This document shows, one piece after another, positions 5,364 through 20,135 of a stretch of 64,000 nt of DNA. How positions within the stretch are numbered: position 1 is the first letter of the stretch; each line of letters opens with the position of its first letter. Below the pieces are notes generated by a model. It was not told the origin of the DNA. It saw only the letters and a program-made list of their open reading frames with translations, and searched no databases. A program made the translations under genes and the position numbers. Source of the stretch: Clostridia bacterium (GTDB taxonomy: Bacteria > Bacillota > Clostridia > Christensenellales > CAG-1252); contig JAIKVL010000007.1 in NCBI GenBank assembly GCA_024685775.1, positions 15,627 to 79,626 of the forward strand, in the 5' to 3' direction.

Positions 5364-5388
5364 ACACTTACAACAGAATAATCATTCA

Positions 5389-5680
5389 AAGGCTGTGACG
5401 AAGTCCGTCTTGATCGAAAACTTCTTTCAGAGATCCGGTGGTTGGTGCGAACCGGTAGAAACGATCGTAGATTATCCCTTCCGAGCCGAAACCCGAAAGC
5501 TTTGTCGTGCTCCACGTCGGCGGCAGTAAAAAGAGCGAGTAGGCGTTTCCGTGACGCTGCGTTAATGCTAAGGGATTGATAGATTCCGAAAAAGAGAGGC
5601 GAATTTCGGTTCGCAATTTGAGTGGTACCGCGGGATAACACCCGTCTCAAAGCAGATGTTTTGAGGCGGGTTTTTGTTTT
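5389..5680 (+). ncRNA. T-box riboswitch, predicted Ile (AUC) specifier
   Basis: GA/K-turn (GGCTGTGACGAAG...CTTCCGAGCC), AGAGA box 5429, apical GGTGCGA loop, specifier loop GATT-ATC-C (ATC 5474-5476), T-box AGTGGTACCGCG 5621-5632, terminator CCCGTCTCAAA...TTTTGAGGCGGG plus T-run 5641-5680. Confidence 0.92.
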
Positions 5681-5775
5681 TCCTCGAAACGGACGCGCTA
5701 TCAGCGGTGCCGCAGCGCATGGATCGCTTAATAAAACGGGAAACCGATGCGCAAAACCAAAAGGAGGAAAAAAGT

Positions 5776-8043
5776 ATGACTACCAACCAAAACCGAAGGC
5801 TTTCGGAGATCGCAGAGCGCATCAAGGAGCTTCGTGAGATTTTCGGTTATTCCGAAGAGGAAATGAGCGAAAAGACCGAAGTCACGATCGCCGAGTACTC
5901 GATGTACGAGCAGGGGCAGCTCGATTTCCCGTTTACCTTTCTTCACAAATGCGCCCTTGCGTTCGGGATCTCGATCACCGATCTTCTCGAAGGTCAAAGC
6001 GCCCACCTTTCGAGCTATACCGTAACGAGAAAAGGAATGGGAATGGAGACCGCGAAAGAGCCCGGCATCGACATCCAAAATCTCGCGCCGCTTTTCCGCA
6101 GCAAGATCGCCGAACCCTATTACGTCCGCTATGAGTACGACCCCTCTCTTCAAGAGCTTCCGATCCACCTGACGAAGCATTCCGGGCAGGAATTCGACTT
6201 CGTTATGAGCGGGAAACTCAAAGTGCAGGTCGGCGAGAACGTCGAGTACCTCGAAGAGGGCGACAGCATTTATTACAACAGTTCCACTCCGCACGGAATG
6301 ATCGCCGTCGGCGGAAAGGATTGCGTCTTCCTCGCGGTCGTTCTCCCCGGCAAGGATCAGGAAGAGACCGTGATCCGCGACACGCTGAACCCGAATAAGA
6401 CGGTGTCCGAGCCGGGCGTCGCTGCCGATTTCATCACCGTAAAAGAAGATGATCGCGGCTATCCGCTGTCGATCGATTTCCATAACGACGACGCGTTCAA
6501 TTTCGCGTTCGACGTCGTGGATAAGATCGCGGATAAGGATCCGAATAAACTCGCGATGCTTCACGTCAGCCGCGATAAAGTCGAGCGCCGCCTGACCTTC
6601 CGCGATATGAAGAGGGCGTCCAACCGTTGCGTGAATTACTTCAAATCGCTCGGGATCAAGAGGGGTGATCGCGTCCTTCTCGTCCTGAAACGCCACTATC
6701 AATTCTGGTTTGCGATCCTCGCGCTTCATAAGCTCGGCGCGATCGCGATCCCCGCGACCTGCCAGCTTTTGTCTCACGATTTCGAGTATCGCTTCCAGGC
6801 GGCGGGCGTTTCCGCGATCGTCTGCACGGCGGACGGAGCCGTCGCGGAGCAAGTCGAGATCGCCGAAAAGACTTCGCCGACCTTGAAGATCAAAATGCTC
6901 GTCGGCGGCAGCCGCCCCGGTTGGCATGATTTCGACGAAGAATATCCGCTGTTCAGCACGCATTACGCGAGACCCAAGGACGCGCCCTGCGGCAACGATC
7001 CGATGCTGATGTTCTTCACTTCGGGGACGACCGGATATCCGAAGATCGCGGAGCATTCCTATAAGTACCCGCTCGGTCACTATATGACGGCGAAGTATTG
7101 GCACGGCGTCAGCGAAGGGGGATTGCATTTTACGATCTCCGACACCGGCTGGGGGAAGGCTCTTTGGGGCAAACTGTACGGGCAATGGCTTGCGGAAAGC
7201 GCGGTCTTTACTTACGATTTCGACCGCTTCGACGCGAGCGACATCCTGCCGATGTTCGCGAAGTATCATATCACGACGTTCTGCGCGCCGCCGACGATGC
7301 TCCGCATGATGATCAAACAAGACCTCTCGAAGTACGATTTTTCCTCGCTCCGTCATATGACGACGGCGGGCGAAGCTTTGAACCCCGAGGTCTACTATCA
7401 ATTCGAAAAAGCGACGGGATTGCAGACGCACGAGGGCTTCGGTCAAACCGAGCTGACATTGATGATCGCGAACCTGATCGGCGCGCCGCATAAAGTCGGT
7501 TCGATGGGTCGCCCCGTCCCCGGTTACGACGTTACGATCCTTTCTCCCGACGGGACTCCCGTTCCGGACGGCGAGACGGGCGAGATCTGCGTAAAAGTTT
7601 CGGAAAAAGTGCCGCGCGGCTTGTTCCTCGGCTACTATCTGAACGAGGAAAAGACCAAAGAAGTCTTGCACGACGGCTACTATCACACGGGCGACACCGC
7701 TTGGCGCGACGAGGACGGTTTCTACTGGTACGTCGGCAGGGTGGACGACGTCATCAAATCGTCGGGCTACCGTATCGGGCCGTTTGAGATCGAGAGCGTC
7801 ATCATGGAGCTTCCCTACGTCGTCGAATGCGGCGTTTCCGCCGCGCCGGACGAGGTCAGAGGGCAGGTCGTCAAAGCGAGCATCGTCCTGACGAAAGGCA
7901 CCGAGCCGACCGATGAACTCAAAAAGGAAATTCAGGATTACGTTAAGAAGCACACCGCTCCTTATAAGTATCCGAGGATCGTCGTCTTCCGCGACGAACT
8001 TCCCAAAACGATCAGCGGGAAAATACAAAGAAATAAACTATAA
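5776..8043 (+). CDS. XRE-HTH + cupin + acyl-CoA synthetase (AMP-binding) fusion, copy 1
   Basis: SD AAGGAGG 5761, ATG 5776 (ORF-track start 5674 lies in the terminator). N-terminal HTH and cupin (HSGQEF, YYNSSTPHGM); ANL motifs FTSGTTGYPK, YHTGD, SSGYRIGPFEIE, PKTISGK. Confidence 0.9.
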   Translation: MTTNQNRRLSEIAERIKELREIFGYSEEEMSEKTEVTIAEYSMYEQGQLDFPFTFLHKCALAFGISITDLLEGQSAHLSSYTVTRKGMGMETAKEPGIDIQNLAPLFRSKIAEPYYVRYEYDPSLQELPIHLTKHSGQEFDFVMSGKLKVQVGENVEYLEEGDSIYYNSSTPHGMIAVGGKDCVFLAVVLPGKDQEETVIRDTLNPNKTVSEPGVAADFITVKEDDRGYPLSIDFHNDDAFNFAFDVVDKIADKDPNKLAMLHVSRDKVERRLTFRDMKRASNRCVNYFKSLGIKRGDRVLLVLKRHYQFWFAILALHKLGAIAIPATCQLLSHDFEYRFQAAGVSAIVCTADGAVAEQVEIAEKTSPTLKIKMLVGGSRPGWHDFDEEYPLFSTHYARPKDAPCGNDPMLMFFTSGTTGYPKIAEHSYKYPLGHYMTAKYWHGVSEGGLHFTISDTGWGKALWGKLYGQWLAESAVFTYDFDRFDASDILPMFAKYHITTFCAPPTMLRMMIKQDLSKYDFSSLRHMTTAGEALNPEVYYQFEKATGLQTHEGFGQTELTLMIANLIGAPHKVGSMGRPVPGYDVTILSPDGTPVPDGETGEICVKVSEKVPRGLFLGYYLNEEKTKEVLHDGYYHTGDTAWRDEDGFYWYVGRVDDVIKSSGYRIGPFEIESVIMELPYVVECGVSAAPDEVRGQVVKASIVLTKGTEPTDELKKEIQDYVKKHTAPYKYPRIVVFRDELPKTISGKIQRNKL

Positions 8044-8060: not shown

Positions 8061-10349
8061 ATGGAAAAAACAGATTTGGACGGAAAGATCAAGGAGATGG
8101 CGGAAAGGATCCGCGAGCTGAGAGAGATCGAAGGGCTTTCGGTCTCCGATATGGCGGAGAAGACCGGCGTTTCCGAAGAAGAGTACGCGAAGTGCGAAAG
8201 AGGGGAAAGCGATTTGAACTTTACCTTCATCTATCGTTGCGCGAAAGCGTTCGGCGTCAACGTTACGGATATCATCGAGGGCTATTCTCCGATGCTGAAT
8301 TCCTACACCGTAACGCGCGTCGGATCGGGGCAAAAGATCGCTCAGGCGCACGGGATGACCTACTATAACCTTGCGTATGCTTTCCAAAACAGGATCGCCG
8401 AGCCGCTTTTCGTAAAAAGCGTTTACGATGCGGATAAAGCCGCGAAGGGAGAGATCGAGCTCACTTCTCACGCCGGGCAGGAATGCGACGTCGTGATCGA
8501 CGGCGCCCTGATGGTCCAAGTCGGCAGCCATACCGAGGTCCTCTACCCCGGCGACAGCATTTATTACGACAGCGGCACGCCGCACGGCATGATCGCGGTC
8601 GGCGGCAAGGACTGCACGTTTTACGCGATCGTCCTGAATCCGAGCGGTGAGCCCATTCCCGAGCTTACGCCCGTCAAAGCGATCGTGGACGAGAACGTCC
8701 AAAAGGGCGACGATAAGGATCGCGCCTATAAAAAGTTCATCGACGTCGTCGAGAACGAGCACGGAACGCCTACTTTCATTAAGTTTAAGAACACCGAAAA
8801 CTTCAATTTCGCGTTCGATATCGTGGACGAGGTCGCGAAGCGCGAACCCAACAAGATGTGTATGCTCCACGTCTCGAAGGATATGACCGAAAGGCGCTTC
8901 ACCTTCCTCGATATGAAAAAGGCGTCCAACCGTTGCGCGAACTATTTTAAGTCGCTCGGGATCAAGAAGGGAGATCGCGTCCTTCTCGTTATGAAGCGCC
9001 ACTATCAATTCTGGTTCGCGATGCTCGGACTCAATAAGCTCGGCGCGATCGCGATCCCGGGAACCAACCAGCTTTTGGAACACGATTTCGAGTATCGCTT
9101 CAATTCGGCGGAGATCGAAACCGTGATCTGCACCGCGGACGGTGATACCGCGCACCAAGTCGATCTCGCCGCGCCCCGTTGCCCCTCTCTCAAAAACAAA
9201 CTCATCGTAAACGGGACGAGGGAAGGTTGGCGCAATTTCGACGAGGAATATCCTCTGTACAGCACCCACTTCGAGCGCACGGAGTCTTCGCCGGGCGGCG
9301 ACGACACGATGCTGATGTTCTTTACGTCGGGAACGTCGGGATATCCGAAGATCGCGAGACATAACTACAAATATGCGCTCGGTCATTTCCATACCGCGAA
9401 ATATTGGCATAACGTCGATCCGGACGGCTTGCATTTTACGATCTCCGACACCGGTTGGGCAAAGGCGATGTGGGGCAAACTGTACGGGCAATGGCTTTGC
9501 GAAGCGGCGACCTTCGTTTACGACTTCGATCGCTTCGACGCGGCGACCATTCTTCCGATGTTCGCGAAGTATCATATCACGACGTTCTGCGCGCCGCCGA
9601 CGATGCTTCGCATGATGATCAAGCAGGATATTTCGAAATACGATTTTTCTTCCGTCCGTCATATGACGACGGCGGGCGAAGCGCTGAACCCCGAGGTCTA
9701 TCGCCAATTCGAGAAAGCGACGGGGCTTCAAATCCTCGAAGGTTTCGGCCAGTCCGAAAGCACGATGATCATCGGCAACCTCGTCGGCGCGCCGCATAAG
9801 ATCGGATCGATGGGTAAGCCCGCTCCGATCTACGACGTCGCTTTGATGGATTCCGAAGGAAAGATCGTCGGCGACGGCGAGACGGGCGAGATCGTCATCA
9901 GCCTGAAAAACGGTTCGCCGATCGGTCTCTTTACCGAGTACTACCGCGATCCCGAAAAGACCAAGGAAGCGCGCCACGACGGTTATTACCACACGGGCGA
10001 TCTCGCTTGGCGCGACGAAGACGGCTTCTACTGGTACGTCGGCAGAGCGGACGACGTCATCAAGTCGTCGGGTTACCGCATCGGACCGTTCGAGATCGAA
10101 AGCGTCATTATGGAGCTTCCCTACGTCTTGGAATGCGGCGTTTCCGCCGTTCCGGACGAGGTCAGAGGGCAGATCGTCAAAGCGAGCATCGTCCTGACGA
10201 AAGGGACCGAGCCGTCCGACGAACTCGTCAAGGAGATCCAAAATTACGTCAAGCAACATACCGCGCCGTATAAATATCCGAGGGTCGTCGTCTTCCGCGA
10301 CGAACTCCCGAAGACGACGAGCGGAAAGATCCAAAGAAACAAACTTTGA
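8061..10349 (+). CDS. XRE-HTH + cupin + acyl-CoA synthetase fusion, copy 2
   Basis: Same architecture and motifs as copy 1 (HAGQEC, FTSGTSGYPK, YHTGD, PKTTSGK); tandem paralog. Confidence 0.9.
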   Translation: MEKTDLDGKIKEMAERIRELREIEGLSVSDMAEKTGVSEEEYAKCERGESDLNFTFIYRCAKAFGVNVTDIIEGYSPMLNSYTVTRVGSGQKIAQAHGMTYYNLAYAFQNRIAEPLFVKSVYDADKAAKGEIELTSHAGQECDVVIDGALMVQVGSHTEVLYPGDSIYYDSGTPHGMIAVGGKDCTFYAIVLNPSGEPIPELTPVKAIVDENVQKGDDKDRAYKKFIDVVENEHGTPTFIKFKNTENFNFAFDIVDEVAKREPNKMCMLHVSKDMTERRFTFLDMKKASNRCANYFKSLGIKKGDRVLLVMKRHYQFWFAMLGLNKLGAIAIPGTNQLLEHDFEYRFNSAEIETVICTADGDTAHQVDLAAPRCPSLKNKLIVNGTREGWRNFDEEYPLYSTHFERTESSPGGDDTMLMFFTSGTSGYPKIARHNYKYALGHFHTAKYWHNVDPDGLHFTISDTGWAKAMWGKLYGQWLCEAATFVYDFDRFDAATILPMFAKYHITTFCAPPTMLRMMIKQDISKYDFSSVRHMTTAGEALNPEVYRQFEKATGLQILEGFGQSESTMIIGNLVGAPHKIGSMGKPAPIYDVALMDSEGKIVGDGETGEIVISLKNGSPIGLFTEYYRDPEKTKEARHDGYYHTGDLAWRDEDGFYWYVGRADDVIKSSGYRIGPFEIESVIMELPYVLECGVSAVPDEVRGQIVKASIVLTKGTEPSDELVKEIQNYVKQHTAPYKYPRVVVFRDELPKTTSGKIQRNKL

Positions 10350-10369: not shown

Positions 10370-10399
10370 TTGACAAGAAAACGTAATAAGTTTTATAAT
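10370..10399 (+). promoter_or_regulatory. internal sigma-A promoter upstream of P-loop/vor/ilvE genes
   Basis: TTGACA-18-TATAAT. Confidence 0.75.
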
Positions 10400-10440
10400 A
10401 ACAAAATACGCCGAAGGCGGTGAAAAAAAAGGGGAAAACA

Positions 10441-11115
10441 ATGGTCGAAAAGCGAATCACGATGATCTTGGGGCATTACGGAAGCGGAAAAACGAATATC
10501 GCCGTAAACCTCGCGCTCGCGCTGAAAAAGGCGGGGAAAAACGTCGCGATCGCCGACCTTGATATCGTCAACCCGTACTTCCGGACGAAGGACAGCCTTT
10601 CCGTCCTCGAAGAGGCGGGCATTCGCCTGATCTCCTCCGAGTACGCGAATACCAACCTCGACATTCCCGCTCTTCCGCAAGATATGTATGCGGTGACGGA
10701 CGATAAGAGTTTGACCTGCGTCCTCGATATCGGCGGCGATGATCGCGGCGCGCTCGTCCTCGGCAGGCTTCGCCCCGGCATCGTGGAAGAGGGAAATTAC
10801 GAGATGCTCCTCGTTATCAATAAATACCGTCCGCTGACCCAAGACGCGCCTTCGACCATCGAAGTCATGGCGGAGATCGAGGCGGCGGCGAATATGCGTT
10901 TTACGGGGATCATCAATAATTCCAACCTCGGCGCGGAGACCACTGCGGAAACCGTTTCGGATTCCCTCGAATATGCGCGCGAGATCTCGAAATTGACTTC
11001 GCTCCCGATCGTTATGACGACGGTGAAAGAAGAATTGATCAAAAAGCTGGAAGGAAAAGCGGAAAACCTCTTTCCGCTGACTTTACAGAAAAACTTTATA
11101 GAGAGTAAAATTTGA
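10441..11115 (+). CDS. P-loop NTPase (MinD/CobQ-like) of unknown function preceding the oxidoreductase genes
   Basis: Walker A GHYGSGKT, then DLDIVNPYFR and LDIGGDD; ATG 10441 preferred over GTG 10420. Confidence 0.8.
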   Translation: MVEKRITMILGHYGSGKTNIAVNLALALKKAGKNVAIADLDIVNPYFRTKDSLSVLEEAGIRLISSEYANTNLDIPALPQDMYAVTDDKSLTCVLDIGGDDRGALVLGRLRPGIVEEGNYEMLLVINKYRPLTQDAPSTIEVMAEIEAAANMRFTGIINNSNLGAETTAETVSDSLEYAREISKLTSLPIVMTTVKEELIKKLEGKAENLFPLTLQKNFIESKI

Positions 11116-11130
11116 AAAAGGAGATGGCTT

Positions 11131-11337
11131 ATGGCAAAACTGACTTTCAAAACCGACTACTGTAAGGGCTGCGGACTATGCGTGGACGTTTGCCCGAAAG
11201 ACGTTCTGCGTCTTGCTCCCGACAAGATTAACAAAAAAGGGCATCATCCCGTTGAAGCCGCGAAACCCGATCAATGCGTCGGATGCGGTTCCTGCGCGAT
11301 CATGTGCCCCGATTCTATTATAAAGGTGGAAAGGTGA
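11131..11337 (+). CDS. 2x[4Fe-4S] ferredoxin-like (delta) subunit of 2-oxoacid:ferredoxin oxidoreductase
   Basis: CKGCGLCVDVCP and CVGCGSCAIMCP. Confidence 0.92.
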   Translation: MAKLTFKTDYCKGCGLCVDVCPKDVLRLAPDKINKKGHHPVEAAKPDQCVGCGSCAIMCPDSIIKVER

Positions 11338-11341
11338 TAGT

Positions 11342-12409
11342 ATGGCAGATAAAGTTTTGATGAAAGGTAACGAAGCGATCGCCGAAGCGGCGATCAAAGC
11401 AGGTTGCAGACACTATTTCGGCTATCCCATCACGCCGCAGACCGAAGTCGCGGCTTATATGGCGAAGAGAATGCCGAAGATCGGCGGGACCTTCCTCCAA
11501 GCGGAGAGCGAGATCGCCGCGATCAATATGGTGTACGGCGTGGCGAGCGCGGGATTTCGCGCGATGACCTCTTCTTCCAGCCCGGGTATCTCCCTGAAAG
11601 GCGAGGGCATCAGTTACCTCGCGGGCGCGGATCTTCCGGCTCTCGTCGTTAACGTTCAGCGCGGCGGTCCGGGGCTCGGCGGTATCCAGCCCAGCCAATC
11701 CGATTATTTCCAAGCGACGCGCGGCGGCGGCCACGGCGACTATCATATGATCGTCCTCGCGCCTTCGTCCGTTCAGGAAATGGCGGAGCTTACCGTCAAA
11801 GGGTTCGAACTCGCGGATAAGTACAGAATGACCTCGATGATCCTTGCGGACGGAACGATGGGGCAGATGATGGAGCCCGTTGATCTGAATTTCACCGTCG
11901 CTCCCGCTCCCGAAAAACCGTGGGCGACGACGGGAACCAAGATGCAGCGCAAACACAATATCGTGAACTCCCTGTCCCTCGTCCCCGAAGAGCTTGAAAA
12001 GCTCAATATCGCGCGTTTCGAGCGTTACGACCTCGTCAAGAAGAACGAGACGATGTACGAAGAGTATATGATGGACGACGCGGATATCGCGATCGCCGCG
12101 TTCGGTATCGCCGCGAGAGTCTCGAAGAACGCCGTCAAAGAGGCGAGAAAGAGAGGGATCAAGGCGGGTCTTATTCGCCCGATCACTTTGTGGCCGTTCC
12201 CCGACGCACCTTTCAAGAAGGCGGCGGAGCACGTCAAAGAGATCATCTCGGTGGAACTTTCGATGGGACAAATGATCGAGGACGTTCGCCTCGCTTCGGA
12301 ATGCAAAGTCAAAGTTTCGCTGTGTAACCGCGTCGGAGGTATGATTCCTTCGCCCGAGCAGGTTTTGGACGCGATCGTTAAAGCAAGTAAGAACGGAGGT
12401 AAGGAATAA
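11342..12409 (+). CDS. vorB: 2-oxoacid:ferredoxin oxidoreductase alpha subunit (VorB-like, 3-methyl-2-oxobutanoate dehydrogenase)
   Basis: KGNEAIAEAAI, YFGYPITPQ, QAESE, TSSSSPG, QRGGPGLG motifs. Confidence 0.88.
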   Translation: MADKVLMKGNEAIAEAAIKAGCRHYFGYPITPQTEVAAYMAKRMPKIGGTFLQAESEIAAINMVYGVASAGFRAMTSSSSPGISLKGEGISYLAGADLPALVVNVQRGGPGLGGIQPSQSDYFQATRGGGHGDYHMIVLAPSSVQEMAELTVKGFELADKYRMTSMILADGTMGQMMEPVDLNFTVAPAPEKPWATTGTKMQRKHNIVNSLSLVPEELEKLNIARFERYDLVKKNETMYEEYMMDDADIAIAAFGIAARVSKNAVKEARKRGIKAGLIRPITLWPFPDAPFKKAAEHVKEIISVELSMGQMIEDVRLASECKVKVSLCNRVGGMIPSPEQVLDAIVKASKNGGKE

Positions 12410-13164
12410 TGATAGTTTACGATAAACCGCACGCGCTTTTGGACGTGCCTCTCCATTATTGCCCCGGCTGCACGCACGGTATTGTGCATAAACTGGTGGC
12501 GGAAGTTATAGACGAACTCGGCATCGAAGGCGAAACGATCGGTATCGCTCCCGTCGGTTGCTCGGTTATGGCGTACGATTATTTCGCCTGCGATATGATC
12601 GAAGCGGCGCACGGAAGAGCGCCCGCGGTCGCGACGGGCGTCAAGAGGGCGGATCCCTCCAAAGTCGTCTTTACCTACCAAGGCGACGGTGACCTCGCTT
12701 CCATCGGTATGGCGGAAACCGTGCACGCCGCGGCGAGAAACGAGAACATCACCGTTATCTTTATCAATAACGCGATCTACGGAATGACCGGTGGTCAAAT
12801 GGCGCCGACCTCCCTCGTCGGGCAGGTCACGCAGACATCTCCTTACGGCAGAGATCCCAAACTTTGCGGTTACCCGATCAAGGTTTGCGAGCTTCTTTCC
12901 GAGCTCGAAGGTCCGGAATATTTGGAGCGCGTCACCGTAAACAGCATTCCCCATATCCGCGCCGCGAAGAAGGCGATCAAGAAAGCTTTCCAAAACCAGA
13001 TCGAAGGGAAGGGCTTCTCTTTGATCGAAGTCGTCTCTTCCTGCCCGACGAACTGGGGTATGACGCCGCAAAACGCGTTGAAGTGGATCGAAGAAAAAAT
13101 GCTTCCGTACTATCCGCTCGGCGTGTATAAAGACAGAAGCGCAAGCGAGGAGGACAAGAAATAA
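12409..13164 (+). CDS. 2-oxoacid:ferredoxin oxidoreductase beta (TPP-binding) subunit
   Basis: YCPGCTHG, GCS, TPP motif GDGD...INN, GMTGGQMAPT, CP. Confidence 0.92.
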   Translation: MIVYDKPHALLDVPLHYCPGCTHGIVHKLVAEVIDELGIEGETIGIAPVGCSVMAYDYFACDMIEAAHGRAPAVATGVKRADPSKVVFTYQGDGDLASIGMAETVHAAARNENITVIFINNAIYGMTGGQMAPTSLVGQVTQTSPYGRDPKLCGYPIKVCELLSELEGPEYLERVTVNSIPHIRAAKKAIKKAFQNQIEGKGFSLIEVVSSCPTNWGMTPQNALKWIEEKMLPYYPLGVYKDRSASEEDKK

Positions 13165-13697
13165 TGAGCACGAGACAATTTCTTTTTTCCGGTTTCGGCG
13201 GACAAGGTATCCTTTTTGCGGGAAAATTCATCGCGTATAAAGGCTTGATCGAAGATAAAGAAGTCAGCTGGCTCCCGTCCTACGGCCCCGAAATGCGCGG
13301 CGGCACGGCGAGTTGCAGCGTCATCGTTTCGGATGAACCCGTCGGTTCCCCGATCGTCAACACGCCCGACGTCCTCGTCGCGATGAACCTTCCTTCTCTC
13401 GACCGTTTCGAGAGCAAGGTCGCGCCCGGCGGCATCATCTTTTTGGATTCGTCCCTGATCGAGCGCAAAGTCGAAAGGACGGACGTTACCGTCTTCGCTC
13501 TTCCCGCCACGCAAATGGCGTCCGATAACGGATTCCCGACTTTGGCGAATATGATCATCGTCGGCAAGATCCTCAAAGAGCTCGGGGAGTACAGCGACGA
13601 AAGTTTGAAAGCCGCGCTTGCGAAAGTCATCAGCGCGAAGCACGCCGATATGATGGAAGTGAACCGTAAGGCGATCGACCTCGGCGCGAACTATTAA
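13164..13697 (+). CDS. 2-oxoacid:ferredoxin oxidoreductase gamma subunit
   Basis: SGFGGQG, PSYGPEMRGG, NMIIVG. Confidence 0.92.
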   Translation: MSTRQFLFSGFGGQGILFAGKFIAYKGLIEDKEVSWLPSYGPEMRGGTASCSVIVSDEPVGSPIVNTPDVLVAMNLPSLDRFESKVAPGGIIFLDSSLIERKVERTDVTVFALPATQMASDNGFPTLANMIIVGKILKELGEYSDESLKAALAKVISAKHADMMEVNRKAIDLGANY

Positions 13698-13707
13698 GGA
13701 GAGAATT

Positions 13708-14772
13708 ATGGAAATCAAATACGTTAAAACGCAAAATCCCAAGGCGATGCCCCCGGAGGACACGCTCGGGTTCGGGAAATATTTTACCGATCATATGCTT
13801 ATGATGGATTGGTCTTCGGATCAAGGATGGCACGATCTCCGCATCGTCCCGTTCGCGAATCTTTCGATCCATCCCGCCTGCACCGCGCTTCATTACGGCT
13901 CGGAGATCTTCGAGGGCTTGAAGGCGTACAGGAGAGCGGACGGCGAAGTCCAACTCTTCCGTCCGATGGAGAATATCCGCAGAATGAATAACTCCGCCGA
14001 AAGGCTTTGCCTCCCCGAGATCCCCGAAGATCTCGCGCTCAAAGCGCTTCTCGCGTTCGTTTCTTCCGAAAAGGCTTGGACGCCGCATAAGAAGGGAACT
14101 TCTTTGTACCTCCGCCCCTTTATGTTCGGAAACGACGAGACCCTCGGCGTGCACGCCGTCCATCACGCGACCTTCGTGATCATCGCGTCTCCGGTCGGCA
14201 GCTACTACAAAGAGGGCATCAACCCCGTCAAGATCATGATCGAATCCGAAGACGTTCGCGCGGTGCGCGGCGGCACGGGCTACGCGAAGTGCGGCGGTAA
14301 CTACGCGGCTTCCAACCGCGCCGGAAAGAAAGCCGAAGATAAGGGCTATTCGCAGGTCCTTTGGCTGGACGGCGTCGAAAGGAAGTACATCGAGGAAGTC
14401 GGCGCGATGAACGTTATGTTCAAGATTGCGGGTAAGATCGTTACCCCGAAACTCACCGGCTCGATCCTTCCGGGTATCACGAGGAAGAGCTGTATCGAAG
14501 TCTTGAAGAAGGCGGGCTATACCGTCGAGGAAAGGCTTCTCTCCGTCGAAGAGCTCGGCAACGCGCTTAAAAACGGGACGCTCGAAGAGGCGTGGGGTTG
14601 CGGAACGGCAGCCGTCGTCTCCCCGATCGGCGAACTCTGCTATAAGGACGTGAAGTACACGATCAACGGCGGAAAGATCGGCGAAGTAACGCAGAAATTA
14701 TACGACACGTTGACCGGCATCCAATGGGGTGAGATCGAAGACACCTTCGGCTGGACGACCGTCGTAAAATAA
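13708..14772 (+). CDS. ilvE: branched-chain amino acid aminotransferase
   Basis: LHYGSEIFEGLKAY, LYLRP, PLP lysine in AKCGGNY, EEVGAMN, ILPGITR. Confidence 0.95.
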   Translation: MEIKYVKTQNPKAMPPEDTLGFGKYFTDHMLMMDWSSDQGWHDLRIVPFANLSIHPACTALHYGSEIFEGLKAYRRADGEVQLFRPMENIRRMNNSAERLCLPEIPEDLALKALLAFVSSEKAWTPHKKGTSLYLRPFMFGNDETLGVHAVHHATFVIIASPVGSYYKEGINPVKIMIESEDVRAVRGGTGYAKCGGNYAASNRAGKKAEDKGYSQVLWLDGVERKYIEEVGAMNVMFKIAGKIVTPKLTGSILPGITRKSCIEVLKKAGYTVEERLLSVEELGNALKNGTLEEAWGCGTAAVVSPIGELCYKDVKYTINGGKIGEVTQKLYDTLTGIQWGEIEDTFGWTTVVK

Positions 14773-14800
14773 GGAATAATCAAAAAAAAGGAGCAAAAGT

Positions 14801-16174
14801 ATGAATCAAGTGAAAATAACGGCAAGGCTTTGCGGAAATGAGAACGAACTGACGTTCAAAGAGAAATTCGAGATCGCGCGCTTGCTGGAAAAGCTATGCG
14901 TGGACGTTATCGAATTCCCCGCTCTATCGGGAAATAAAGAAGACGCCTTGCTAATTCGTACTTGCGCGTCCTTTATCAAAAACAGCGTTCTTTCCGTCCC
15001 CGTGCTCTCCGCGGCGCAGGCGGACGAAGCGGCTGCGTGCCTTTCGGGCGCGAATAACGCCGCATTGCGCGTCGAGCTCAGCGTCTCTCCCGTCGGGATG
15101 GAATATTTCCACCACAGAAAGGCGCCGAAGATGCTCGAACTCATCAAAGAACTCGTTTCTTACGCCGCGTCCAAGGCGAAGAAAGTGTATTTCTGCGCGC
15201 TCGACGCGACGCGCGCCGAAGAAGAATTCTTGAAGAGCGCGCTTCTCGCGGCGGAAGAAGCCGGCGCGAAAGCCGTCTATCTTTCGGACGACGCGGGCGA
15301 AATGCTCCCGGACGAGTTCGCGCTTTTTGCGGAAAAATTCGGAAAGGTCGTCGGCGTTCCGATCGGCGTCGCCGTCTCGAATAAGAGCGGATTTGCGCTT
15401 TCTTCCGCGGTGCTTGCGGTCAGAAAAGGCGTTAAAGCCGTCAAAACCGTGCTTTCGGGCGACGGGATCTCTCTTCAAGCGTTCGCGAACTGCATCAAAA
15501 ACAGCGGCGCGAGAAACGGGATCGCGCTCGGCGTTACCTATACCGAACTCAATCGTATTATCGCGCGCGTAAACGGCATTTCGGACGGCGGCGAGGGCTC
15601 GGCTCCCTCCAAAGCCGAACTCGGCGACGCGCCTTTCGTCAATTTGGACGAAAACGATAATAAGGAAGCCGTCACGGAAGCGGCGGCGAAACTCGGCTAC
15701 GATCTTTCAAACGAAGATCAGACGAAAGTGTACGAGGAATTCCTGCGCGTCGCGAATAAGAAAAAGAGAGTCGGCGCGAAAGAACTCGACGCGATCATCG
15801 CTTCGGCGGCGCTTCAAGTCCCCGCGACGTACAAGCTCGTCAGCTATGTGATCAATAACGGCAACATCATTCATTCTTCCGCGCAGATCGCCTTGCAAAA
15901 GGGCAATGAGACGCTCGCGGGCATCTCGATGGGTAACGGACCGATCGACGCGGCGTTCCTTTGCTTGGAAAGCATTTTGGGGACGCATTACGAGCTCGAC
16001 GATTTCGAGATCCAGTCGGTGACCGAAGGAAAAGAGGCGATGGGCTCCGCGCTCGTCAAACTCCGCAAAGACGGGAAACTCTATTCCGGCAAGGGTATTT
16101 CGACCGATATCATCGGGGCTTCGATTCGCGCCTATCTCAGCGCGGCGAATAAGATCGCATACGAGGAGGAATAA
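14801..16174 (+). CDS. LeuA (2-isopropylmalate synthase)-like protein with degenerate catalytic domain and intact C-terminal allosteric domain
   Basis: EKFEIARLLEKLCVDVIE matches the LeuA N-terminus but DTTLRDGxQ is absent; HxHND reads AVSNK; C-terminal GNGPIDAAF...GKGISTDIIGASIRAYLSA. Confidence 0.85.
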   Translation: MNQVKITARLCGNENELTFKEKFEIARLLEKLCVDVIEFPALSGNKEDALLIRTCASFIKNSVLSVPVLSAAQADEAAACLSGANNAALRVELSVSPVGMEYFHHRKAPKMLELIKELVSYAASKAKKVYFCALDATRAEEEFLKSALLAAEEAGAKAVYLSDDAGEMLPDEFALFAEKFGKVVGVPIGVAVSNKSGFALSSAVLAVRKGVKAVKTVLSGDGISLQAFANCIKNSGARNGIALGVTYTELNRIIARVNGISDGGEGSAPSKAELGDAPFVNLDENDNKEAVTEAAAKLGYDLSNEDQTKVYEEFLRVANKKKRVGAKELDAIIASAALQVPATYKLVSYVINNGNIIHSSAQIALQKGNETLAGISMGNGPIDAAFLCLESILGTHYELDDFEIQSVTEGKEAMGSALVKLRKDGKLYSGKGISTDIIGASIRAYLSAANKIAYEEE

Positions 16175-16176
16175 CG

Positions 16177-18705
16177 ATGAAACTTTCATTTTCCACGAAG
16201 GGTTGGCATCACTCCTCCTTCGATGATTTTTGCGACTACGCCTGCGATCTCGGATTCGACGGCGTGGAACTTCATAACATCCATAATAAACTTTTTACCG
16301 ATAAAGACGGCGCGTTTCACGATTACGCCGCGGCGGCGACGCTTCGCAAACTGTACGAGAAGAAATTGTCGCTTCCCTGCATCGACGCGATCTGTGACGT
16401 TGCGACGGTAAACGGAAGGGAAGAAGCGATCGAAGAGATCGGGAAATGCGCGGAGATCGCGCAGAATCTTCATATCCCCTACGTCCGCGTTCGCGCCGAA
16501 GCGCACGAGGATGAGGCGCAAGCGGACGAGCGCGTTCGCTCGTTGATCGCGGAAGTCCTTCCGATCGCCGAAAAAGCGGGCGTGACCATCGTTATGGAAA
16601 CCGCGGGATTGTACGTCAGCAGCGCGCGTCTTCGCGATCTTTTGCAAAGCTTTGCCTGTGATTCTTTCGCCGCGCTTTGGAATTTCTCCGCCGCTTACTT
16701 CGGTTCGGGCGAGGCTCCCGAAAAAGTCATCGAGAACCTCGGCGCCTACGTTAAGCACGTTCACTTGAACGACGCGAAAAAGACCCGAGACGGCGCGATC
16801 GAGTACTCTCTCCTCGGAGAGGGCGATCTCCCCGTCAAGGATATGATGGCGGCGCTTTCTTCCGTCAATTACGACGGATTTATTTCCCTCGTCTGGCATC
16901 CGGATTGGTGCGGCGAACTCAAAGACATCGAGATCATTTTCGCGCAATTCGTCGGCTTTATGAAGCAATTCGGCGACACGGCGAAAGGAGAGAAGTCTTT
17001 ATACTGGAATCGCAGACATACCGGTAAATTCGTCTGGAAGAAGGAAATCTTGATCGACGAGACTTTCCCCGCCGTCCTCGACAGAATGTGCGAAGAGTTC
17101 CCCGATCAGTACGCATTTAAGTACACGACCCTCGATTACACGAGGACCTACGTCGAGTTCCGCAGAGACGTGGACGAATTCGCCCGCACCTTGATCGCGC
17201 TCGGCGTCAAAGCCGGATCGCACGTCGCCGTTTGGGCGTCCAACGTCCCACAATGGTATATCGCGTTTTGGGCGACCGTTAAAATCGGCGCCGTCCTCGT
17301 GACGGTCAACACGGCGTACAAGATCGCCGAGGTCGAATACCTTTTGAAGCAGTCCGACACGCACACGTTGATCATGACCGAAGGTTCGAAAGATTGTCAT
17401 TACGGCAAGATCATCGCGCAGCTTTGCCCCGAGCTTTCGGAAAAGAAACCTTCCGATCCGTTGCACGCAAAGCGTCTTCCTTTCCTCAGAAACGTCATTA
17501 CCGTCGGCTATCGTCAGCCCGGTTGCTTAACTTGGAGTCAAGCGATCAAACTCTCCGAAAAGGTCAAGCAGGAAGAGGTCTTGCGTATGGCGGCGGCGGT
17601 CAATAAACACGACGTCTGCAATATGCAGTACACGTCCGGAACGACGGGCTTCCCGAAGGGCGTCATGCTGACGCACTACAATATCGTAAATAACGGCAAG
17701 TCGATCGGCGACCGTATGGATCTTTCGACGGCGGACAGAATGATGATCCAAGTCCCGATGTTCCATTGCTTCGGAATGGTCCTCGCGATGACCGCGACGA
17801 TGACGCACGGCGGCACGCTTTTGCCCCTGCCGTACTTCTCGCCGAAACCCGCGCTCGCTTGCATCAATAACGAGCATATCACTGCGTTCCACGGCGTCCC
17901 GACGATGTTTATCGCGCTTCTCGAACACCCCGATTTCCCGAAGACGGACTTCTCGTATATGAGGACGGGCATTATGGCGGGTTCGCCTTGCCCGATTTCC
18001 GCGATGCAACAGGTCGTCGAGAAAATGAATATGAAAGAGATCACGATCGTCTACGGGCAGACCGAGGCTTCCCCGGGTTGCACGATGAGTTCGACGGACG
18101 ATCCGATCGAGATCCGCGTCGGGACGGTCGGCAGACCGCTTCCCGAAATCGAGTGCCGCATCGTAAATCCCGAGACGGGCGAAGATTGCCCCGACGAAGT
18201 TACGGGCGAATTCTTGGCGCGCGGCTATAACATTATGAAGGGATACTATAAGATGCCGAAAGCGACCGCGCAGGCGATCGATAAGGACGGCTGGCTCCAC
18301 ACGGGCGACCTCGCTTGCAGGACGAAAGAAGGGAACTTCCGCATTACGGGCAGGCTCAAAGATATGATCATTCGCGGCGGCGAAAACATCTATCCGAAAG
18401 AGATCGAGGAATTCATTTACACCCATCCGAAGGTCTCGGACGTTCAAGTCATCGGCGTCCCGGACGAGTCCTACGGCGAAGAGATCATGGCGTGTATCAT
18501 CCTGAAAGAGGGTGAGACGATGACCGCGGACGAGATGAAAGCCTATATCGGCGCGAATATGGCGCGCCATAAGGTCCCGAAGTACGTCGATTTCGTTACG
18601 TCCTTCCCGATGAACGCCGCGGGCAAGATCTTGAAGTATAAAATGCGCGAGGACGCGATCGCGAAACTCGGGCTTCAAAAAGCGAACAGCATCGAAACGG
18701 CTTGA
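16177..18705 (+). CDS. xylose isomerase-like (AP_endonuc_2) TIM barrel fused to acyl-CoA synthetase
   Basis: N-terminal GFDGVEL...VMET...HVHLND...GEG; C-terminal YTSGTTGFPKG, HTGDL, GRLKDMIIRGGENIYP, AGKILK. Confidence 0.88.
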   Translation: MKLSFSTKGWHHSSFDDFCDYACDLGFDGVELHNIHNKLFTDKDGAFHDYAAAATLRKLYEKKLSLPCIDAICDVATVNGREEAIEEIGKCAEIAQNLHIPYVRVRAEAHEDEAQADERVRSLIAEVLPIAEKAGVTIVMETAGLYVSSARLRDLLQSFACDSFAALWNFSAAYFGSGEAPEKVIENLGAYVKHVHLNDAKKTRDGAIEYSLLGEGDLPVKDMMAALSSVNYDGFISLVWHPDWCGELKDIEIIFAQFVGFMKQFGDTAKGEKSLYWNRRHTGKFVWKKEILIDETFPAVLDRMCEEFPDQYAFKYTTLDYTRTYVEFRRDVDEFARTLIALGVKAGSHVAVWASNVPQWYIAFWATVKIGAVLVTVNTAYKIAEVEYLLKQSDTHTLIMTEGSKDCHYGKIIAQLCPELSEKKPSDPLHAKRLPFLRNVITVGYRQPGCLTWSQAIKLSEKVKQEEVLRMAAAVNKHDVCNMQYTSGTTGFPKGVMLTHYNIVNNGKSIGDRMDLSTADRMMIQVPMFHCFGMVLAMTATMTHGGTLLPLPYFSPKPALACINNEHITAFHGVPTMFIALLEHPDFPKTDFSYMRTGIMAGSPCPISAMQQVVEKMNMKEITIVYGQTEASPGCTMSSTDDPIEIRVGTVGRPLPEIECRIVNPETGEDCPDEVTGEFLARGYNIMKGYYKMPKATAQAIDKDGWLHTGDLACRTKEGNFRITGRLKDMIIRGGENIYPKEIEEFIYTHPKVSDVQVIGVPDESYGEEIMACIILKEGETMTADEMKAYIGANMARHKVPKYVDFVTSFPMNAAGKILKYKMREDAIAKLGLQKANSIETA

Positions 18706-18778: not shown

Positions 18779-20059
18779 ATGGGGATCATCATCCTTTCCG
18801 TTTGCACGGTCGCGCTGTTTATTCTCTCGGTGCTTTTGAAGCCCGAGATCAAAATCGGAAAAATCAAGTTCGATAGCTTTTTTCTGTTCCCGCTCGTCGG
18901 CGCGATTCTTTGTCTGTCGCTCGGATATCTCCCGCTTTCCGATCTTATGTCCGCGCTGTTTTCGAAAGGGGAGATGAACCCTTTGAAGATCCTCGTTTTG
19001 TTCTTCTCGATGACCGTTATGAGCCTGTATTTGGACGAAGCGGGGTTTTTCCGTTACCTCGCGGCGAAGAGCGCGGGGTCGTCCGGGAAGCTCGGGTTTT
19101 TCATCCGAATCTACGCGCTCGTCTCCATTCTGACGATCTTTACTTCGAACGACGTCGTGATCTTGACCTTTACTCCGTTTATTTGCGCCTACGCGAAACG
19201 GCTTCGAATTTCGCCGTTCCCGTATCTTATGATGGAATTCGTCGCGGCGAACACTTGGAGTATGCTTTTCATCGTCGGCAATCCGACGAATATTTATATC
19301 GCCGCCTCGCTCGGCACGGATTTTTTCCATTACTTGAAGATTATGTTTCTCCCCGCGATCGCCGCGGGCGGCGTTTCTTTTCTCGCGCTGTTGCTTTTGT
19401 TCAAAAACGAATTGAAGGAGCGCGCCGAACTCGCGCCGATCGAAGAGAAGATCGAACTCGATAAACCCCTCGTCGCGCTCTCTTTGTCCGCTCTCGGGTT
19501 ATGCGTTCTCGCGCTCGTCGTCAGCTCCTTCCTGCCAAACGTTCAAATGTGGTATATTTCGCTCGGATTCGCGCTGCTCTTGACGGTGGTCGTCGCCGTC
19601 GTCCGCCTCGCAAGAAAGGAAAAAGCGAAGTATTTGTTCGCCGCGTATAAAAGGCTTCCGTATGCGATCGCGCCTTTTCTCGTGTCGATGTTTATCCTCG
19701 TCCTTGCGCTGAAAGAGCAAGGAGTAACGGCTAGAATCGCTTCTTTGATCCCGAATGAAGGGGAGATCTTTTCCTACGGCGGCATCTCCTATCTCGCCGC
19801 GAACCTTTTGAATAACATCCCGATGAGCGTCCTTTTCGCGGAGATCTGCCCGACTGCGGGCGCGAAGTTCGCCGCGATCGTTTCTTCGAATCTCGGCGCG
19901 CTCCTAACCCCCGTCGGCGCGCTCGCCGGCATTATGTTTACCAAGATCACCGCGACATACGGCGAAGAGATCAAGGTTTATAAATTCGTCCTTTGCGGCG
20001 CGGCGGTCTCCGTTCCCGCGCTTGCGGCGTCGCTCGGCGCGCTTCTCGTGACGCTGTAA
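18779..20059 (+). CDS. ArsB/NhaD (ion transporter superfamily) anion permease
   Basis: About 11-12 hydrophobic segments; SNDVVIL, VGNPTNI, NNIP, NLGALLTPVGALAGI. Confidence 0.85.
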   Translation: MGIIILSVCTVALFILSVLLKPEIKIGKIKFDSFFLFPLVGAILCLSLGYLPLSDLMSALFSKGEMNPLKILVLFFSMTVMSLYLDEAGFFRYLAAKSAGSSGKLGFFIRIYALVSILTIFTSNDVVILTFTPFICAYAKRLRISPFPYLMMEFVAANTWSMLFIVGNPTNIYIAASLGTDFFHYLKIMFLPAIAAGGVSFLALLLLFKNELKERAELAPIEEKIELDKPLVALSLSALGLCVLALVVSSFLPNVQMWYISLGFALLLTVVVAVVRLARKEKAKYLFAAYKRLPYAIAPFLVSMFILVLALKEQGVTARIASLIPNEGEIFSYGGISYLAANLLNNIPMSVLFAEICPTAGAKFAAIVSSNLGALLTPVGALAGIMFTKITATYGEEIKVYKFVLCGAAVSVPALAASLGALLVTL

Positions 20060-20109: not shown

Positions 20110-20135
20110 TTTCCGACTTTGTCGGAAATTTTTTT
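20110..20135 (+). terminator. Rho-independent terminator
   Basis: TTTCCGAC-ttt-GTCGGAAA plus T7. Confidence 0.65.

Follow-up and report, generated by a model that had tools for sequence, protein, structure and literature searches.

The pLeuA locus

We have analysed a 64,000-nt stretch of DNA from a Clostridia bacterium (Christensenellales, CAG-1252; contig JAIKVL010000007.1), the whole of which is referred to below as the window, and within it a gene at positions 14801-16174 of the + strand whose product resembles 2-isopropylmalate synthase (LeuA) but has lost the residues on which catalysis by LeuA depends. We call the gene and its product pLeuA. The gene lies within a cluster in which all genes have the same (+) orientation, and which also encodes two putative acyl-CoA ligases fused to helix-turn-helix (HTH) and cupin domains (ligases 1 and 2), a four-subunit 2-oxoisovalerate:ferredoxin oxidoreductase (Vor; 11131..13697, with the Pfam domains POR_N, PFOR_II, TPP_enzyme_C and POR), the branched-chain amino acid aminotransferase IlvE and, directly after pLeuA, a third putative ligase (ligase 3); coordinates are collected in Table 1. 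An initial annotation of this DNA had described pLeuA as a LeuA pseudoenzyme, in which all three DRE-TIM signatures were gone, the frame was intact, the C-terminal allosteric domain was preserved and the next gene followed closely, and had proposed that it serves as a repurposed leucine sensor, possibly as a subunit of the adjacent synthetase. As described in the sections that follow, each of these descriptive points was confirmed.

Loss of the LeuA active site

The pLeuA open reading frame (ORF) is open throughout and specifies 457 aa, and a GGAG ribosome-binding site lies 9 nt to the 5' side of its ATG. Pfam assigned residues 15-222 to the HMGL-like family (PF00682, 85.9 bits) and residues 325-452 to LeuA_dimer, the LeuA regulatory domain (PF08502, 101.3 bits). 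Yet all of the NCBIfam models for LeuA, CimA and homocitrate synthase scored pLeuA far under their cut-offs; the best of them, NF002086, gave 224.1 bits against a cut-off of 532, and TIGR00973 gave 199.9 bits against 598.7.

We compared the active-site motifs through an alignment of pLeuA with 8 true LeuAs from related genomes, and observed that each of the signatures named in the initial annotation is altered. The LeuA sequence DTTLRDGEQ is represented in pLeuA by ITARLCGNEN; the metal-ligand Asp of LRDG has no aligned counterpart in this region, which reads RLCG, and the substrate Arg is lost, its aligned position being occupied by Gly or Cys depending on the alignment. The FSxEDAxR motif is replaced by FCALDATR, with Leu in the place of the catalytic Glu, and VHCHNDLG is replaced by VAVSNKSG, in which AVS stands for HCH. 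Where LeuA has NGxGERAGN, pLeuA has SG-----DG, the GERAGN loop having been removed by a 5-residue deletion. In all, none of the 6 scored catalytic or metal residues is retained, and the window protein has also lost the first Asp (of DTTL; position A8), which is otherwise conserved among its relatives. There was one further loss that the initial annotation had not mentioned: accessory subdomain I (HESGIHQHG..., ~30 aa) is entirely deleted. We predict from these sequence comparisons that pLeuA is non-catalytic and has no 2-isopropylmalate synthase activity; it appears to be a protein with the fold and domain order of LeuA that nevertheless falls outside every definition of a catalytic LeuA.

Predicted structure and the regulatory domain

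The AlphaFold2 model of pLeuA, with a mean predicted local distance difference test score (pLDDT) of 81, consists of an eight-stranded barrel, a linker and two beta-beta-beta-alpha units; residues 264-277 of the linker have a pLDDT of 40 and are disordered in the model. When the model was compared with PDB entries by Foldseek, the top matches were to full-length LeuA of Mycobacterium tuberculosis (MtLeuA; 3HPZ, 3HPS, 3FIG and 1SR9), and the barrel superposed at 1.8-2.2 A on the LeuA barrels of Listeria, Neisseria and Cytophaga (3EWB, 3RMJ and 3EEG).

The regulatory domain is the best conserved part of pLeuA across representatives of its family. Two Gly-rich loops, G378-x-G-P-x-D-A and G430-x-G-x-S-T-D, which sit ahead of helices 381-393 and 437-456 in the model, are 93-100% conserved within the family and are common to true LeuAs. 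The domain resembles its counterpart in LeuA: BLASTP detected no match between it and the C-terminal part of CimA-like paralogues of related genomes, and trees agreed with this result. When the C-terminal 175 aa of pLeuA were searched against PDB sequences, only a weak match to subdomain II was obtained.

The pLeuA family and its selection

A search of 5.8 billion proteins with pLeuA returned thousands of matches. The best 120 are 55-86% identical to pLeuA and 455-462 aa in length, with the exception of a 325-aa fragment and of two proteins extended at the N-terminus (488 and 507 aa), and they are annotated as 'hypothetical protein' where they have been named. A search of cluster representatives (50% identity clusters) yielded more than 100 further clusters of 450-480 aa, with identities down to 33%, and at least 501 GTDB species, scanned as one genome per species, encode a pLeuA relative. 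The carriers are metagenome-assembled genomes (MAGs) from rumen and hindgut, labelled Christensenella sp., Acutalibacteraceae, Oscillospiraceae or Ruminococcus. The family was monophyletic in our tree, with 100/100 support, and stood apart from both LeuA and the CimA-like paralogues. Aligned over the full length, pLeuA is 27-31% identical to the true LeuAs of related genomes.

We observed that loss of the active site extends through the family. Not one of 106 divergent representatives has kept both His ligands, and 105 of them have kept at most 2 of the 6 scored residues. The former ligand positions are hypervariable, the first His being replaced by E, Q, S, C, R, A, D or K. Among 107 aligned sequences, which include one true LeuA (P0263), the GERAGN loop is deleted in 105 and the catalytic His of subdomain I in 94. 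To judge from these alignments, active-site loss is a trait of the family and not a chance event. The barrel has 22 conserved positions, 17 of which are inherited from LeuA and are second-shell or structural (for example D135-A-x-R138 and D163); a few are specific to the family, notably F19, E101 and K107, and no new catalytic constellation was found among the 22.

Selection was assessed from pairwise dN/dS ratios (Nei-Gojobori method, NG86), using pairs with dS of 0.05-1.2. The overall ratio for pLeuA was 0.10, with values of 0.12 for the barrel and 0.06 for subdomain II as well as for the regulatory domain; the corresponding values were 0.08 for IlvE, 0.08 for the N-terminal barrel of ligase 3 and 0.04 for the ligase 3 core. 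The low ratios in both domains of pLeuA exclude neutral decay of the gene. The initial annotation had held that a comparison of dN/dS by domain across homologues should bear on its proposal, and had named frameshifts in relatives as evidence against it. Selection on each domain was purifying, and decay by frameshift was not seen: in 78 of 81 loci (the window and 80 loci fetched from other genomes) the ORF is intact, with 448-462 aa, and the other 3 are cut by a contig end or contain N. Also, contigs from a bovine gut metatranscriptome matched the cluster near-exactly, among other places at the ilvE/pLeuA junction (14609-14849) and inside pLeuA (15649-15941), which is consistent with expression of pLeuA, carry-over of DNA being possible.

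We encountered a number of short proteins (P0234, P0238, P0240, P0247, P0257 and P0261) in which a near-identical PF08502 domain is joined to MFS, response regulator, MBOAT, 7TMR-HDED, Laminin_G_3 and DctM fragments. Because these partners are unrelated and partial, the joined proteins look like chimeras, probably arising in assembly or gene calling at the conserved 3' end of pLeuA genes, and they were not used as evidence.

Coupling of pLeuA to ligase 3

Ligase 3 is an 842-aa fusion (16177-18705) of a xylose-isomerase-like barrel to an ANL acyl-CoA ligase; the core of the latter has motifs A3, A5, A7 and A8 as well as the A10 Lys. In comparison with PDB homologues, the metal site of the ligase 3 barrel is incomplete: DxxH is replaced by NFSA, and the last Glu by Val. 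These losses are found in most of 65 homologues as well, and the domain is still under purifying selection, as the ratio given above attests. The locus thus encodes two degenerate barrels side by side, in pLeuA and in the N-terminus of ligase 3.

In the window, a GAGGAGG Shine-Dalgarno sequence lies inside the last codons of pLeuA, and the ATG of ligase 3, at 16177, is 2 nt past the pLeuA stop. The barrel-ligase fusion is the next gene after pLeuA in all of the 80 fetched loci, as it is in the window. In each of these 81 loci, the distance from the pLeuA stop to the ligase start is between -4 and +6 nt, and the Shine-Dalgarno sequence falls within the last pLeuA codons. The pairing persists where pLeuA identity has dropped to 33-35% (L097 and L099); in these two loci the ligase barrel has diverged equally (32-34%), and the ligase core is still 64-67% identical. 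Distance matrices for pLeuA and the ligase barrel were correlated (r = 0.71-0.72), and the partial r was ~0.53 when the ligase core and IlvE were controlled for, which suggests that pLeuA and the ligase barrel diverge in step. The adjacency and coupling in 81 of 81 loci, together with the divergence correlated with that of the ligase barrel, are genomic proxies for a putative stoichiometric complex. In 3 loci (L035, L036 and L042), the pLeuA-ligase pair is intact and no Vor or IlvE match occurs in the fetched flanks; we therefore rejected Vor and IlvE as partners of pLeuA.

T-box control of the ligase units

T-boxes turn genes on when the cognate tRNA is uncharged. Acyl-CoA ligase genes are an unusual target for them. 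We read the T-boxes of Oscillospirales loci by alignment of their leaders to two anchors confirmed by Rfam, L029 (132 bits) and L040 (126 bits), in both of which the specifier is CUC, followed by A. Oscillospirales loci have three T-boxes, one ahead of each ligase unit. The T-box located 75-135 nt upstream of pLeuA specifies Leu in 58 of 58 loci (CUC in 56 and CUG in 2), the T-box before the first HTH-cupin ligase specifies Ile (AUC, 11 of 11 loci), and the T-box before the second specifies Val (GUA or GUC, 28 of 28 Oscillospirales loci). T-box control of the ligases argues that the cluster is anabolic and that the pLeuA-ligase pair is its leucine unit, and from this assignment we infer that isovalerate is the substrate of ligase 3, with Vor and IlvE acting after it. 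Ligase 3 would then be an isovalerate-CoA ligase serving the Leu branch, and ligases 1 and 2 are predicted to be a 2-methylbutyrate-CoA ligase (Ile branch) and an isobutyrate-CoA ligase (Val branch), respectively. The opposite, catabolic direction, from Leu to isovalerate, was rejected as the main role of the cluster, since T-boxes induce on uncharged tRNA and the ligases are AMP-forming.

The window itself has a single T-box, at the head of the cluster, with the Ile specifier AUC, and none directly before pLeuA. In Christensenellales-type loci, including the window, pLeuA begins 19-40 nt after ilvE (28 nt in the window) and has no T-box of its own. This sets a limit on the leucine assignment here: there is no Leu T-box, and the cluster that contains pLeuA has an Ile T-box at its head. 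A consensus promoter sequence (Table 1) lies between ligase 2 and the gene for a P-loop NTPase. It precedes the block made up of the P-loop NTPase, Vor, IlvE, pLeuA and ligase 3, and through it the downstream half of the cluster may escape the Ile T-box. Should this promoter be genuine, the leucine unit would have no control specific to leucine at the level of transcription in the window lineage, and a protein sensor would be the sole leucine-specific brake.

Absence of de novo leucine synthesis from carrier genomes

The window comes from a 1.7-Mb genome, 97% complete, in which PF08502 occurs once only, in pLeuA. The other HMGL-family genes of this genome encode an oxaloacetate decarboxylase alpha subunit and a nifV/homocitrate-synthase-like protein without a regulatory domain. 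The latter (L001 1093-2490, contig C17; 465 aa), which gave a weak score of 150 bits and is found throughout the genus, might, as we would guess, be a Re-citrate synthase. True LeuA was found in none of the genomes of the window's genus. It was found in 11 of the 41 genomes of a set of relatives, and none of these 11 shows the pLeuA match pattern. A TIGR00973-type LeuA was absent at E <= 1e-60 from all of 46 carrier genomes, in a search that did not separately cover the long-form LeuA (TIGR00970). Matches to leuB and ilvD were above cut-off in just 4 of 47 carrier genomes, and the window's own genome gave zero matches to either (leuCD was not searched). The 4 genomes in question (G069, G076, G080 and G085) have no TIGR00973-type LeuA, and two of them (G076 and G080) have several copies of the genes; these may be genomes that carry a long-form LeuA, or else mixed or contaminated bins.

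Proposed role of pLeuA

The interpretation that we favour, with somewhat better than even confidence, is that pLeuA is a leucine-binding regulatory subunit of an isovalerate-CoA ligase that feeds Vor and IlvE for the formation of leucine. The earlier proposal of a repurposed leucine sensor or synthetase subunit is supported by the purifying selection on pLeuA, by its coupling to the ligase in 81 of 81 loci, by the Leu T-box in 58 of 58 loci and by the lack of a true LeuA in the 46 carriers and of leuB and ilvD in most carriers; we infer the binding of leucine, the complex with the ligase and the inhibition. In mechanistic terms, pLeuA would be a non-catalytic descendant of 2-isopropylmalate synthase in which the barrel was kept as a scaffold and the regulatory domain was kept for leucine binding and dimerisation. 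It would be made in step with the downstream ligase, dimerise through PF08502 and dock on ligase 3, most likely via the two dead barrels. Ligase 3 would convert isovalerate to isovaleryl-CoA, Vor would convert the latter to 2-oxoisocaproate by reductive carboxylation, and IlvE would produce leucine by transamination. Leucine, when abundant, would bind at the dimer interface of the pLeuA regulatory domains and stiffen the complex as it does in true LeuA, thereby slowing ligase 3 at the ATP-consuming first committed step. Organisms without de novo leucine synthesis would, in this way, have shifted the allosteric module from their old committed enzyme to the new one.

Studies of true LeuA and of its regulatory domain provide precedents for parts of this scheme. 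Leucine occupies a hydrophobic pocket at the regulatory-domain dimer interface of MtLeuA, where the N-termini of two helices flank its carboxylate (PMC11057210), and, once bound, it makes the accessory and regulatory domains more rigid over the partner barrel (PMC9860122). An isolated PF08502 domain functions as a stand-alone amino-acid sensor, and the PF08502 domain of CimA binds Ile (PMC13381585).

A wider proposal, in which we have somewhat less than even confidence, is that rumen and gut Clostridia which have lost de novo branched-chain amino acid synthesis use a three-branch salvage system for isovalerate, 2-methylbutyrate and isobutyrate, in which each branch would have a dedicated CoA ligase, gating by a Leu, Ile or Val T-box according to the charging of its tRNA, and a sensor module of its own appended to the ligase. 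The module for leucine would be the first committed enzyme of the lost pathway put to new use: the dead LeuA would dock barrel to barrel on the dead sugar-isomerase-like domain of its ligase, and so relay leucine feedback.

Several observations weigh against pLeuA as a leucine-responsive ligase subunit. The correlated divergence of pLeuA and the ligase barrel could stem from linkage, or from a shared history of horizontal transfer. No natural pLeuA-ligase fusion was found among the 150 best pLeuA representatives, the full-length members of which are all 450-480 aa, and none in the top 120 ligase homologues, which are 832-843 aa in length. A distant pLeuA homologue (P0245; L098 1287-2693, 35% identity) has no adjoining ligase; its neighbours are genes of the RhuM, HTH and DUF3990 types, a context like that of a mobile element. 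About one-third of the conserved positions in the regulatory region, including E398, D400, D401, F402 and R422, are specific to the family, so the ligand or the interface of pLeuA may have changed; these five residues are candidates for a new interface. Leucine specificity of the pocket is a prediction from the LeuA ancestry of the domain and from the Leu T-box. Lastly, subdomain I of MtLeuA bears His379 and Tyr410, which are required for transmission of the leucine signal (PMC9860122), and since subdomain I is deleted from pLeuA, signal transmission would need a route other than that of MtLeuA.

Alternative explanations

We have weighed this interpretation against four others. It is unlikely, but worth serious consideration, that pLeuA serves the ligase as an obligatory subunit of a structural or activating kind (as scaffold, as chaperone or as a bridge that channels isovaleryl-CoA to Vor) and has no leucine-dependent role, in which case the regulatory domain would be kept only for dimerisation. 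PF08502 is indeed also the dimerisation domain of LeuA, according to its Pfam description; the universal translational coupling would suit a stoichiometric subunit of whatever function, selection acts on the barrel as well (dN/dS 0.12), and most lineages already have transcriptional control by Leu. On the other hand, conservation is strongest in the two Gly-rich ligand loops that true LeuA also has, and is not confined to surface positions, and the regulatory domain is the most constrained part of the protein (dN/dS 0.06). Moreover, the window lineage, having no Leu T-box, would have no Leu-specific control at all if there were no allostery. We consider it improbable that pLeuA has instead been neofunctionalised around its old barrel cavity, to bind or process isovalerate, isovaleryl-CoA or 2-oxoisocaproate, or to carry out a metal-independent catalysis. 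The same selection on the barrel would fit such a role, as would the near-invariance of the second-shell residues (the first D of DTTL, S96, Y102, D135, R138 and D163) and the invariance, in this family only, of E101 and K107. However, the 17 of 22 conserved barrel positions that are shared with LeuA are merely inherited from it, the former ligand positions are hypervariable, no new conserved cluster of His, Cys or Lys has appeared, and the window protein has lost even the otherwise conserved first Asp (A8).

A change of effector or of the sign of regulation would leave pLeuA a sensor, but one that responds to Ile, Val or 2-oxoisocaproate, or that activates the ligase instead of inhibiting it. 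The CimA-type PF08502 domains that bind Ile (PMC13381585), the family-specific substitutions in the pLeuA regulatory domain and the existence of a PDB entry for MtLeuA with ketoisocaproate (3HPS) could be taken to point in this direction; we judge it quite improbable, given that both BLASTP and trees place the regulatory domain with LeuA rather than with the CimA-like paralogues, and that the pair has a Leu T-box in 58 of 58 loci, with the Ile and Val T-boxes on the other ligases. Finally, the loss of every catalytic residue and the absence of the remainder of the leucine pathway might suggest a decaying leuA remnant without function. We give this pseudogene explanation virtually no weight and regard it as already refuted: the frame is intact in 78 of 81 loci, dN/dS is 0.10, more than 100 divergent clusters have kept the same length, neither gene order nor translational coupling varies, and transcripts were detected.

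Relation to known systems

The features that pLeuA shares with LeuA (EC 2.3.3.13; short form, 3EWB and 3RMJ; long form, MtLeuA 1SR9 and 3FIG) are the DRE-TIM barrel, the subdomain II helices and the two beta-beta-beta-alpha units of PF08502. It differs from LeuA in the absence of the Asp/His/His ligands, the substrate Arg, the catalytic Glu, the GERAGN loop and subdomain I, and also in that it forms a separate clade, adjoins an acyl-CoA ligase rather than leuBCD, and is found in genomes without a leucine pathway. HisZ, an inactive histidyl-tRNA synthetase paralogue, is the regulatory subunit of the short-form ATP phosphoribosyltransferase HisG. Like the role proposed for pLeuA, that of HisZ is an instance of a dead paralogue of an amino-acid enzyme being reused in trans to make a committed enzyme sensitive to its end product, although the fold and the partner enzyme are different, and for pLeuA the complex and the feedback are predictions. 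The small subunit of acetohydroxyacid synthase (IlvH/IlvN), which binds valine, is similarly a separate branched-chain amino-acid-binding regulator of the first enzyme of a pathway, and has been used as a stand-alone sensor (PMC13381585); unlike pLeuA, it is an ACT-fold protein without enzyme ancestry, and it acts on a thiamine pyrophosphate (TPP) enzyme rather than on an ANL ligase. The regulatory (LA, PF08502) domain of CimA belongs to the same domain family as that of pLeuA and works as an isolated recognition module (PMC13381585). Its ligand is Ile and it belongs to an enzyme that is active; the pLeuA domain is closer to that of LeuA.

Rumen bacteria are known from classical labelling physiology to carboxylate branched-chain volatile fatty acids reductively. 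The route proposed for the pLeuA cluster has the same order of steps (acid to acyl-CoA to 2-oxoacid to amino acid) and the same setting, in rumen and hindgut Clostridia; dedicated ligases, sensor modules and T-box wiring of the kind proposed here were not found described for the known route in the searchable literature. MbcS of Staphylococcus aureus is a characterised ligase for short-chain branched-chain acids (PMC10026030). Our literature search found no paper on the pLeuA family, the ligase fusions, the T-box wiring or the pathway genes.

That cellulolytic rumen bacteria require isobutyrate, isovalerate and 2-methylbutyrate has been known for decades, and cattle are given these acids as feed supplements. 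In the searchable literature, the path from the branched-chain acids to Val, Leu and Ile is defined neither in its genes nor in its control logic; the cluster offers candidates for each step, and the T-box specifiers allot to each ligase its amino acid. The pLeuA family, now annotated as 'hypothetical protein', is common in rumen and hindgut MAGs. If the wider proposal is correct, pLeuA would be the first described allosteric regulatory subunit in the ANL family of acyl-CoA ligases, and would document the survival of an allosteric module beyond its own pathway. The dead LeuA would provide a testable model of end-product feedback kept after a pathway was exchanged, and would add both a new class of pseudoenzyme and a portable leucine-binding module for biosensors.

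Other features of the cluster

Table 1. Positions of pLeuA segments and of the other features of the cluster in the window
Feature	Position	Strand	Basis or remarks
T-box leader heading the cluster	5386..5652	+	Rfam RF00230, 97.2 bits vs gathering 93; specifier AUC (Ile) at 5474-5476
Terminator hairpin of T-box leader	5640-5671	+	Scan for terminator-like sites
Ligase 1, HTH (XRE)-cupin-AMP-binding fusion	5674..8043	+	Pfam HTH_19, Cupin_2, AMP-binding, AMP-binding_C
Ligase 2, second HTH-cupin-AMP-binding fusion	8061..10349	+	Pfam
Putative sigma-70-type consensus promoter, TTGACA-18 nt-TATAAT	10370..10399	+	12/12 consensus matches; pattern match only
P-loop NTPase, CbiA/ParA/NUBPL type	10420..11115	+	Pfam
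VorD	11131-11337	+	68-aa ORF with two CxxCxxCxxxCP motifs
VorB	11342-12409	+	NF005507, 539 bits vs cut-off 399
Vor TPP subunit (VorA)	12409-13164	+	Pfam
Vor gamma subunit (VorC)	13164-13697	+	Pfam
IlvE, branched-chain amino acid aminotransferase	13708..14772	+	NF009897, 481.7 bits vs cut-off 307
pLeuA residues 1-260	14801..15580	+	DRE-TIM-type barrel without metal ligands or catalytic residues; PF00682, Foldseek, dN/dS 0.12
pLeuA residues 261-285	15581..15655	+	Variable low-confidence linker in place of accessory subdomain I; least conserved block
pLeuA residues 286-457 and stop	15656..16174	+	Accessory subdomain II helices and PF08502 regulatory domain; dN/dS 0.06
Ligase 3, N-terminal xylose-isomerase-like TIM barrel	16177..17031	+	PF01261, 88 bits
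Ligase 3, ANL-type acyl-CoA synthetase core	17032..18705	+	PF00501, 313 bits; PF13193; NF009233, 682 bits
CitMHS/ArsB-type permease	18779..20059	+	PF03600, 118 bits

Most loci keep the tandem of HTH-cupin-ligase fusions upstream of vor. The HTH-cupin module may do for Ile or Val what pLeuA would do for Leu, or it may make the ligases DNA-binding. Nearly all Vor-carrying loci have the gene for the P-loop NTPase directly to the 5' side of vorD, and its product may serve Vor in maturation or in Fe-S delivery. There is no terminator-like site between ligase 3 and the permease gene, and one is found after the latter, at 20110-20128. The permease may be a carboxylate importer; its position after the ligase is conserved, among the fetched loci, only in the closest relatives (L018).

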